Positions 6,677-9,436 of a DNA stretch of 64,000 nt are shown here, one piece after another (the stretch's first letter is position 1; each line of letters starts with the position of its first letter). Where the stretch lies: assembly GCA_947499005.1 (NCBI GenBank), contig CANMML010000018.1, forward strand, positions 6,325 to 70,324. The letters are read 5' to 3'. This DNA comes from an uncultured Aquimarina sp. (lineage in GTDB: Bacteria > Bacteroidota > Bacteroidia > Flavobacteriales > Flavobacteriaceae). Made by a program: the position numbers and the translations under genes. The notes under the pieces are model-generated. The model saw only the letters and a list, made by a program, of their open reading frames with translations, made no database searches and was not told the DNA's origin.

Positions 6677-7234
6677 TTATTTCGCTTTTTTAGGCGCAAG
6701 AAACATAATCATACGTTTACCTTCTAGTTTAGGCATTTGTTCAACTTTACCAAGGTCTTCTAATTCTTGAGCTAATTTTAACAACAAGATTTGTCCTTGA
6801 TCTTTATAAATAATTGAACGTCCTTTAAAGAAAACATAAGCTTTTAATTTGGCTCCTTCTTCAAGAAATTTGATAGCATGCTTCTTCTTAAATTCGTAAT
6901 CGTGCTCATCTGTATTTGGACCAAAACGAATTTCTTTAACAACTACTTTCGAAGCCTTTGCTTTTAGCGCTTTATCACGCTTTTTTTGTTCGTAAAGGAA
7001 CTTTTTGTAGTCCATTATTTTACAAACAGGCGGATCGGCCTTAGGGGAAATCTCAACTAAGTCGAGTTCCTGTTCCTCGGCCATTGTTAATGCTTGGCGG
7101 GTTTTGTATATACCTACTTCAACATTATCACCAACTAAACGGACTTCAGGCACACGAATTTTTTCATTAATTCTGTGCGGATCTTCCTTAATTTCCCTAA
7201 TTGGTCTCCTGGTTCTTTTTCTACGAATTGCTAT
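6677..7234 (-). CDS. infC: Translation initiation factor IF-3, probable ATA start
   Basis: ORF track starts at an internal GTG (7153); the frame stays open 27 codons upstream: ATA-GCA-ATT-CGT-AGA.. = (M)[33 protein letters not shown], which restores the conserved INEKI motif. Confidence 0.93.
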
Positions 7235-7308: not shown

Positions 7309-9252
7309 TTAAAAACTTTTTAATGTTTTATTAATTTCTTCGTTAATTAATTTTGAGAAATCTTCAATGGTTAAACTTCCAATTTCTTCCTTGTTTCCAT
7401 GTTTGCGTACTGAAACTTTACCTTCTTTCTCTTCGTTTTCTCCAATGATGAGCATATACGGGTATTTGTTCATCTCAGCTTCACGAATTTTCTTACCTAT
7501 AGTTTCATTACGATTATCTACAAGGCTGCGAATTTCGTAATTTTCTAATTGATTTAAAACTTTTTCCGCGTAATTTTCGTATTTCTCACTCAAAGATAGT
7601 ATAATTACTTGCTCCGGCATTAGCCAAAGTGGGAAATTACCTCCAGTATGCTCTAAAAGAATAGCAATGAAACGTTCTAAACTTCCAAAAGGAGCACGAT
7701 GAATCATTACAGGGCGATGCATTTCGTTGTCTGAACCTTTATAATGAAGGTCAAAACGCTCTGGTAAGTTATAATCGACTTGGATCGTACCTAATTGCCA
7801 GCTTCTTCCAAGGGCATCCTTCACCATAAAGTCAAGTTTAGGTCCATAGAATGCAGCTTCACCAGATTCGATTACGTAATCTAATCCTTTTTCTTGTGCA
7901 GCATTAATAATAGCTTGCTCTGCTTTTTCCCAGTTTTCAGTATCACCAATATATTTTTCTGGTTTTTCTAAATCGCGTACAGATACCTGTGCTGTAAAAT
8001 TATCGAAACCTAAAGATCCGAATACATATAATACAAGATCAATTACATCTTTAAATTCTTGATCTAACTGATCTGGTGTACAGAAAATATGTGCGTCATC
8101 TTGTGTAAATCCACGAACACGAGTTAAACCATGTAATTCTCCACTTTGCTCGTAACGGTAAACGGTACCAAATTCAGCATAACGAATTGGTAAGTCACGA
8201 TACGACCAAGGTCCACTCTTGTATATTTCACAGTGATGTGGACAGTTCATTGGCTTAAGTAAAAACTCTTCACCATCGGCAGGAGTACTGATAGGTTGAA
8301 AACTATCCTCTCCGTATTTAGCATAGTGCCCCGAAGTTACATACAATTCTTTTTGACCGATATGCGGAGTGACTACCATCTCATACCCAGCCTTTTTCTG
8401 TGCCTTCTTTAAAAATTGCTCTAAACGATCGCGTAAAGCAGCTCCTTTTGGTAACCATAACGGTAATCCTTGACCTACACGTTGTGAAAAAGTAAATAAG
8501 CCTAATTCTTTACCTAGCTTTCTATGGTCACGGCGTTTAGCTTCTTCCAGTAATTCTAAATATTGTTTTAACTCTTTTTGCTTAGGGAACGAGGTTCCGT
8601 AAACACGAGTCAACTGCTTGTTATTTTCATCACCTCGCCAATAGGCCCCGGCAATACTCATTAATTTTACAGCTTTTATATATCCTGTATGAGGTAAGTG
8701 TCCCCCACGACATAAATCGGAAAAATCATCATGATGACAGAAAGTAATGGTACCGTCTTCAAGGTTTTCAATTAATTCAACTTTGTATTCGTTTCCTTGT
8801 TCTTGATATTTGGCTAAGGCGTCTACTTTAGAAACAGCTTCCAATTTAAACTCATGCTTACCTCTAGCGATTTCTAACATTTTGTCTTCAATTTTCTTGA
8901 AGTCTTTATCAGAAATAGTTTGTTCGCCGAGGTCAACATCGTAATAAAATCCATTTTCAATAGCAGGACCTATACTTAATTTTACTCCAGGATATAACTG
9001 TTCTAATGCTTGTGCTAATACGTGAGCTGATGAGTGGCGAAAAGCTTCCTTTCCTTCTTTATCATTCCAAGTAAATAATGTCAAACTACCGTCTTGGGTT
9101 AGGGGAGTACTGGTCTCGACAATGGTATTTTCAAACTTTGCTGAAATTACGTTTCGCGCTAGTCCCTCACTAATGCTTTTGGCTACATCCATTGGTGTAG
9201 CTCCATTTTCAAATTGTTTTACCGAACCGTCTGGTAATTTAATATTTATCAT
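7309..9252 (-). CDS. thrS: Threonine--tRNA ligase
   Basis: TGS domain, HSSAH editing motif, [33 protein letters not shown]. Confidence 0.99.
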
Positions 9253-9268
9253 AAATAATCTAAAAAAT

Positions 9269-9295
9269 TAGCTTTCGACTACAAACTCGAAGCTA
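9269..9295 (-). promoter_or_regulatory. thrS 5' leader hairpin with tRNA-Thr-like UUGUA loop
   Basis: Minus strand UAGCUUCGA-GUUUGUAG-UCGAAAGCUA, at -17 to -43 from the ATG. Confidence 0.55.
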
Positions 9296-9310
9296 TGTTT
9301 AAAACGAAGA

Positions 9311-9318
9311 CAAATATA
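9311..9318 (-). promoter_or_regulatory. Bacteroidetes -7 promoter element of thrS
   Basis: TATATTTG on the minus strand matches TAnnTTTG, 59 bp upstream of the ATG. Confidence 0.7.
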
Positions 9319-9436
9319 GAGTAAAGTTATTAGTAGTTATAGGTTTTTTTGCATCAGAAAGTCCTCTGTTTTTAGGGGATTTAAATATAGTAAAGAGTTT
9401 AAGCTAGATTACTATGATTTATAGTAATGACTTTAA

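Follow-up and report, generated by a model that had tools for sequence, protein, structure and literature searches.

The thrS locus and its leader

In the window, which is the whole stretch of 64,000 nucleotides that was analysed, the threonine-tRNA ligase gene thrS lies on the minus strand, with infC downstream of it (Table 1). Using Pfam, the TGS, tRNA_SAD, tRNA-synt_2b (class II core) and HGTP_anticodon domains were all detected in the ThrRS open reading frame, the start of which (MINI...) is common to all relatives compared, and thrS is the sole strong ThrRS match in the genome. With respect to the regulation considered below, thrS is presumed to be the regulated gene and to encode the repressor as well.

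Table 1. Features of the thrS region, with positions in the window
Feature	Positions	Strand	Remarks
infC	6677-7153		downstream of thrS
thrS (threonine-tRNA ligase, 647 aa)	7309-9252	minus	Pfam domains
A/U-rich unstructured stretch from hairpin to AUG, 17 nt	9253-9269	minus	
Hairpin 3' arm UCGAAAGCU	9270-9278	minus	one bulged base within the A run 9273-9275
Loop GUUUGUAG, 8 nt	9279-9286	minus	matches the loop of the genome's own tRNA-Thr(UGU)
Loop core UUGUA	9284-9280	minus	equivalent of U33-U34-G35-U36-A37
Hairpin 5' arm AGCUUCGA	9287-9294	minus	8 pairs in 5/5 sequences
Leader 5' flank, A/U-rich, 16 nt	9295-9310	minus	not conserved
Promoter box TATATTTG, Bacteroidota-type -7 (TAnnTTTG)	9311-9318	minus	invariant in the four hairpin species and the nearest outgroups

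The promoter box is unchanged in all four of the species that carry the leader hairpin described below, as well as in the nearest outgroups, with differing flanks on both occasions. The inferred thrS transcript start is probably located about 5 nt past the box, near position 9306. The distance between the box end and the thrS ATG (9252-9250, minus strand) is 58 nt, slightly more than the approximately 55 nt that had been assigned to this leader in an earlier reading made from the letters alone (the sequence-only reading), which was right in describing a single dominant hairpin at this position. Among the four species, the 5' flank of the hairpin comprises 13-16 nt of unalignable sequence, and the stretch between hairpin and AUG comprises 17-20 nt. 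The latter stretch, which in the window contains no Shine-Dalgarno sequence, is the presumed ribosome-loading region, and its bases at -3, -6, -12 and -13 are U and not A in the genome of the window. A leader peptide was considered and rejected, as there is no upstream ATG within the thrS leader of any of the four species.

Some side aspects of the upstream region may be mentioned here. An AT-only hairpin (ATTACTAT-AAATC-ATAGTAAT, window positions 9400-9425, minus strand) lies about a dozen nucleotides past the stop of the T9SS gene (9437) and could be a weak terminator that lacks a U-tract. The gene upstream of thrS encodes this T9SS-exported protein in the window and a monomeric isocitrate dehydrogenase in the assemblies L147 and L148. 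In many draft assemblies of the genus and family, the thrS start is only 200-700 nt away from a contig end, which suggests that an assembly-breaking repeat, perhaps an rRNA operon, is located upstream of thrS in those draft genomes.

The hairpin that dominates the leader (9270-9294) consists of 8 pairs, one bulged base and an 8-nt loop, with 3 pairs, the bulge and 5 pairs following each other in the stem. A folding energy of -9.5 kcal/mol (z = -3.2) was obtained for 33 nt including 3-nt flanks and of -7.4 kcal/mol for the 25-nt hairpin alone, and the hairpin was retained when the whole leader was folded. According to a genome-wide count of hairpins that have 8 or more pairs and a loop of 7-8 nt containing UUGUA or UGGUA, such a structure is expected by chance 0.004 times in any given 60 nt, or 0.0006 times if UUUGUA is demanded. 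Only one copy of the hairpin exists in the genome, even with up to 5 mismatches tolerated, and we therefore rejected a repeat family or a REP/MITE-like element. Rfam returned no match to the leader of the window at E values up to 10, and none to the sister loci or to the E. coli thrS leader at E values up to 1; as Rfam is thus blind even to the E. coli operator, it cannot test membership. Likewise, a consensus terminator and promoter scan detected nothing at the hairpin.

Two tRNA-Thr genes, with the anticodons UGU and GGU, were found in the genome using ARAGORN. The anticodon arm of tRNA-Thr(UGU), which is 100% identical among the sister genomes, reads GCUGA-UUUGUAA-UCAGC, and the UUUGUA of the hairpin corresponds to positions 32-37 of this tRNA, with the closing GA..UC also in common. 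This match is better than that of the sequence-only reading, which had recognised U-UGU-A as in the tRNA-Thr(UGU) loop, and the central, G35-like base is indeed at -30 (position 9282), where that reading had placed it. The hairpin loop has one base more than the anticodon loop. An origin as a copied piece of a tRNA gene was rejected, as the agreement ends with the loop and two closing pairs and the remaining stem is unrelated, and the alternative registers of the loop for Tyr (GUA) or Gln (UUG) were rejected because the anticodon would be off-centre or purine 37 would be missing. Outside the window, ARAGORN also reported a tRNA with the anticodon CUA, labelled tRNA-Pyl, at positions 73718-73795 of contig C9 of the same genome, which could be either a wrong prediction or a suppressor-like tRNA.

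Conservation and distribution of the hairpin, and similar loops in Sphingobacteriaceae

The hairpin occurs in four Aquimarina species, which are the marine species of the window (G000), G078, G058 and the Aquimarina MAG G070, as well as in the assemblies L147 and L148. The ThrRS proteins of the hairpin bearers are at least 93% identical to that of the window (G078 96%, G070 94%, L147 94%, L148 93%), and in a protein search covering all 91 Aquimarina species the four hairpin species were the only ones with more than 88% ThrRS identity. Pairwise identities at the four-fold degenerate sites of thrS are 42-56%, and only 19% of these sites are invariant in all four species, indicating that the neutral, synonymous sites are close to saturation. 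In contrast to this, 15 of the 25 columns of the hairpin do not vary, among them the whole of UUGUA. The loop follows the consensus R-N-UUGUA-R, in which variation is confined to the additional base on the 5' side, which is U, A or C, and to the purines at either end, which are G..G or A..A.

All 8 pairs are present in 5/5 sequences, without any broken pair. Three of the pairs are changed on both sides (A-U/G-C, G-C/C-G and G-C/A-U), so that every change in the stem is compensated. The covariation score was reached by none of 500 shuffles, and the pairing was destroyed by sliding the partners. All four species have retained the bulge, with a differing base (A in three of them, C in G078), and the G35-like base is found at -30, -33, -33 and -31. 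Judged from this comparison of only four independent and closely related lineages, the element is under selection for its structure as well as for its loop sequence. A check of covariation and loop conservation across Flavobacteriia, which had been proposed along with the sequence-only reading, did not refute it within the hairpin clade, where UUGUA is invariant and stem changes are compensatory, and showed that the hairpin is no general trait of Flavobacteriia.

The distribution was followed in several ways. The next relatives (G095, G017, G072, G033, L149 and L150) have a short leader. Leaders from 18 other Aquimarina species, 29 other Flavobacteriaceae genera and 12 other Flavobacteriales families had no hairpin, and the last TAnnTTTG box, which was found in 56 of 59 leaders, is only 17-41 nt, mostly 19-26 nt, away from the thrS ATG, a distance that is too short for the hairpin. 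Including all searches, the hairpin was not found in the remaining 87 Aquimarina species or in samples from roughly 300 other Flavobacteriaceae genera. A pattern scan of 400 Flavobacteriaceae genomes from 302 genera, the thrS-start half of which fits 43 of 47 known starts, revealed no further thrS with a hairpin UUGUA 22-40 nt upstream; among six thrS pattern matches, at least three arose from the box followed by TA, and the others were at or upstream of the box. When genome and metagenome collections were searched for the exact 18-nt core, G070 alone was a true match. The other 64 loci were chance matches, mostly in unrelated lineages. Apart from L057, no locus has the core before thrS, the core being in coding sequence elsewhere. 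Within the genus, BLAST with the leader found G070 and missed G078 and G058, which were both recovered by the covariance model R1 that had been built from those of G070, L147 and L148. The weaker matches of this model (22-26 bits) did not adjoin thrS, with the exception of G078. Other contigs contributed a single piece of low depth that is identical to the window, together with pieces from other flavobacteria. Two of the latter, with loose ends at 9253/9254, have a short leader in which about 20 nt separate the box from the ATG; none of these contig pieces contained a further variant of the hairpin.

The element is therefore a trait of one small Aquimarina subclade, for which a gain of about 37 nt is the simplest explanation. 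This gain appears to have taken place in the common ancestor of the four species, by addition of the 37 nt or so to a leader of about 17 nt. Regarding its source, a promoter-proximal sequence in a relative with 88% identical ThrRS (AGCTTTACATACAAACTTTGAAGCC, L149:1400-1470) resembles the reverse complement of the hairpin to about 80% by eye if two gaps are allowed, which might indicate that the insertion originated from an inverted duplication of promoter DNA. As a separate observation, many Flavobacteriaceae genera contain a (TA)n-TTGTATG sequence on the upstream side of the thrS TAnnTTTG box, some 20 nt away from it and at about -50 to -60 before the ATG (loci L117-L145 and L176-L179). This is probably a -33 element with an AT-rich upstream element, and the TTGTA therein would not be transcribed.

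A phylum-wide sample of 29 thrS leaders yielded only one mimic, which had a CGU loop. Its genome was assigned to the Sphingobacteriaceae via a Mucilaginibacter protein, and this family was sampled next (thrS upstream regions L182 and L205-L233). A distal hairpin with a U-NGU-A loop (N = U, A, C or G) and a variable stem was present at about -50 to -100 in 27 of the 30 Sphingobacteriaceae leaders. In 29 of the 30, there was also a proximal hairpin, AAUCAU-AGUUGUAG-AUGAUU, the 3' arm of which contains the AUG itself, so that the start codon is paired. None of these leaders had an Rfam match. This two-hairpin arrangement looks like an operator. Identity determinants of tRNA-Thr are G35 and U36, as is known from work on E. 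coli. A free position 34 next to a fixed G35-U36-A37 is what would be predicted if ThrRS must recognise all tRNA-Thr isoacceptors. In the literature consulted, "nucleotides of threonine anticodons" are named as determinants in no finer detail (PMC9976931).

The Sphingobacteriaceae leaders belong to the same phylum and the same gene as the Aquimarina element, and several of their loops have the same 8-nt register, NN-UUGUA-R, as exemplified by ACUUGUAG in comparison to ACUUGUAA in G078. However, their stems are unrelated and there are usually two hairpins, whereas Aquimarina has a single hairpin that ends 17-20 nt before the AUG. The recurrence of such loops makes it more probable a priori that loops of this kind in thrS leaders serve as ThrRS sites and that a loop of 8 nt is acceptable.

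A putative ThrRS operator and alternative roles of the hairpin

On the basis of these comparisons, we consider it fairly probable that the hairpin serves as a translational operator to which ThrRS binds. With respect to the process, we infer the binding of ThrRS and its competition with the ribosome and with tRNA, just as the position of the transcription start. When ThrRS is in excess of its tRNA substrate, its anticodon-binding domain would recognise the copy of U33-U34-G35-U36-A37 in the loop. The ThrRS dimer, once bound, would be positioned 17-20 nt upstream of the AUG, at the upstream edge of the region that the 30S subunit of Bacteroidia must load without a Shine-Dalgarno anchor, and initiation would be blocked. 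Uncharged tRNA-Thr would compete for the hairpin site and thereby relieve the repression. In Flavobacterium johnsoniae, the region from -20 to +20 tends to be unpaired, initiation depends on this, and upstream A residues promote initiation and are possibly read by bS1 (PMC6847099). A dimer at the above-mentioned distance would plausibly obstruct such a Shine-Dalgarno-independent loading.

Several aspects speak against this operator function. The loop has 8 nt and not the 7 nt of an anticodon loop, the stem of 3 pairs, bulge and 5 pairs is unlike the 5-pair anticodon stem, and there is a single hairpin versus the two that are available to the E. coli dimer, so that the affinity could be low. 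The hairpin is lacking in about 90 further species of Aquimarina and in most of the Flavobacteriaceae that were sampled, which means that it is dispensable. Moreover, given the U residues at -3, -6, -12 and -13 in the genome of the window, the hairpin might aid mRNA loading in another way.

The most serious alternative is a structural 5'-UTR hairpin that acts as an mRNA stabiliser, as a processing signal or as the site of another protein or RNA, with a merely coincidental likeness to tRNA-Thr. It is in principle true that covariation proves a structure and not a ligand, and both the start of the hairpin about 10 nt from the inferred 5' end and the loop of 8 instead of 7 nt would be compatible with such a role. 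However, a stabiliser does not require a fixed loop, yet UUGUA is invariant at a near-saturated divergence, and the U-NGU-A loop recurs in Sphingobacteriaceae on unrelated stems and specifically before thrS. The chance of such a loop in the leader is only about 0.004, as calculated above. A structural role thus leaves the fixation of anticodon-like bases before thrS in two unrelated settings unexplained, and we regard it as unlikely, albeit as the one alternative of real weight.

A transcription attenuator, in which hairpin and U-run would form an intrinsic terminator, constitutive or modulated by a protein, that limits read-through into thrS, was suggested by the AAUUUUUU that follows the stem in the window and by an A-rich stretch upstream. 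This U-tract is not conserved, however. The 8 nt past the stem contain 6, 3, 5 and 3 U residues in the four species, three lineages begin with A-runs or A-rich sequence at this point, and some of the U-rich stretch is similar to the short leader that is usual among the relatives; the lack of a conserved U-tract argues that the hairpin is not a terminator. The stem is also weak (-6.9 to -9.1 kcal/mol), and the consensus terminator scan found none here. We therefore view attenuation as very improbable.

Marginally less credible still is a DNA operator, i.e., binding of a dimeric transcription factor to the inverted repeat TTCGA-N8-TCGAA and blockage of RNA polymerase past the promoter. The near-perfect inverted repeat about 10-40 bp downstream of the inferred start speaks for it. 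Yet the half-sites change together in such a way that the pairing is kept (G-C to A-U, A-U to G-C, G-C to C-G), and these pairing-preserving changes indicate compensation in an RNA and not protein-DNA contacts. The conserved bulge is asymmetric, and the invariant core UUGUA is non-palindromic and located in the spacer, which does not agree with a DNA operator either. A neutral, functionless remnant of an insertion, for which the restriction to one small clade and the lack in close relatives could be quoted, is disfavoured as the least probable of all alternatives, as 15 of the 25 columns are invariant versus 19% of the four-fold sites and every stem substitution is compensated.

Returning to the operator, the sequence-only reading had proposed that the mimicry known from E. 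coli exists in a flavobacterium. This proposal, with its predicted repression by ThrRS, gained comparative support for the small Aquimarina subclade and not for the Flavobacteriia at large. In its full form, the idea that this is a ThrRS operator of minimal design, with a single hairpin, which originated recently inside one genus and independently of the E. coli and Sphingobacteriaceae leaders, is more tentative, and we would place it slightly short of an even chance. If it is true, synthetase autoregulation by anticodon mimicry evolves repeatedly, and a minimal operator acts by blocking Shine-Dalgarno-independent ribosome loading. The way in which ThrRS represses its own synthesis is the textbook example of gene control by tRNA mimicry. 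To judge from Rfam and the literature searched, it has been described only for E. coli and its relatives, and our literature search found no description of a thrS leader mimic in Bacteroidota, Aquimarina or Sphingobacteriaceae, in agreement with the sequence-only reading, which knew of none in Bacteroidetes. A conserved, covarying mimic in Bacteroidota would show that the principle was reinvented in distant phyla, that one hairpin may suffice and that it can also work with ribosomes that disregard Shine-Dalgarno sequences, in which case another way of loading the mRNA must be what it competes with. Close relatives that differ in having or lacking the element would then constitute a natural before-and-after pair, and the narrow distribution offers a clean comparative system for the value that this regulation has for the cell.

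Comparison with known systems

The T-box of Firmicutes thrS and thrZ (Rfam RF00230) is similar in that it is also located before thrS and senses the tRNA-Thr system. With its length of about 200 nt, a T-box, however, offers a codon (ACN) to the tRNA and operates a terminator/antiterminator switch, whereas the 25-nt hairpin of Aquimarina presents an anticodon. A T-box riboswitch was rejected, as there is no Rfam match, the leader has only 58 nt and the loop contains no ACN.

Anticodon mimics have also been described in yeast, where HisRS acts on HTS1 (PMC6542539) and ThrRS on RPC10 (PMC9956033). As in Aquimarina, for which the binding is predicted, a synthetase is combined with an mRNA element that resembles the cognate anticodon stem-loop, and translation is tuned. 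The yeast mimics are nevertheless eukaryotic, differ in location and target, and have no evolutionary link to the Aquimarina element.

The closest parallel is the thrS operator of E. coli. ThrRS binds there to domains 2 and 4 of the leader, which both resemble an anticodon arm, and prevents the binding of the 30S subunit, and the exchange of the anticodon-like bases for those of tRNA-Met resulted in control by MetRS (PMC11088916, PMC9976931, PMC3858243). The ribosome-binding site of E. coli thrS is bipartite and split by a hairpin (PMC3858243). Inspection of the K-12 leader showed that the domain 2 loop, UUCGUGU, has its CGU at -33 to -31 and is therefore centred at -32, as had been stated beforehand for the key loop. 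The Aquimarina element is likewise situated on the sense strand of the thrS 5' leader between promoter and AUG, its loop carries the U33-N34-G35-U36-purine37 of tRNA-Thr, and the hairpin adjoins the presumed ribosome-binding region, with its G35-like base at -30 to -33 versus -32. Unstructured A/U-rich mRNA flanks the hairpin on both sides, reminiscent of the bipartite site. The anticodon-like bases are fixed while the stem covaries, as would be expected of an operator of the E. coli type.

There are also clear differences. The Aquimarina element has no sequence homology to the E. coli operator and is limited to four species, all four of which have one hairpin between box and AUG instead of domains 2 and 4. 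Its loop has 8 nt and not 7, due to an extra variable base 5' of the U33-like base, and it mimics UGU and not CGU. As there is no Shine-Dalgarno sequence in Aquimarina, the competition would be with an SD-independent loading, probably via bS1. The assumed E. coli-type mimicry thus applies to the gene, the logic of the loop and the spacing, but not to the design with two hairpins and 7-nt loops. In summary, comparison supports well the view that the Aquimarina element is a variant of the operator principle known from E. coli thrS, specific to one lineage and with a single hairpin, and with ThrRS as its predicted ligand.
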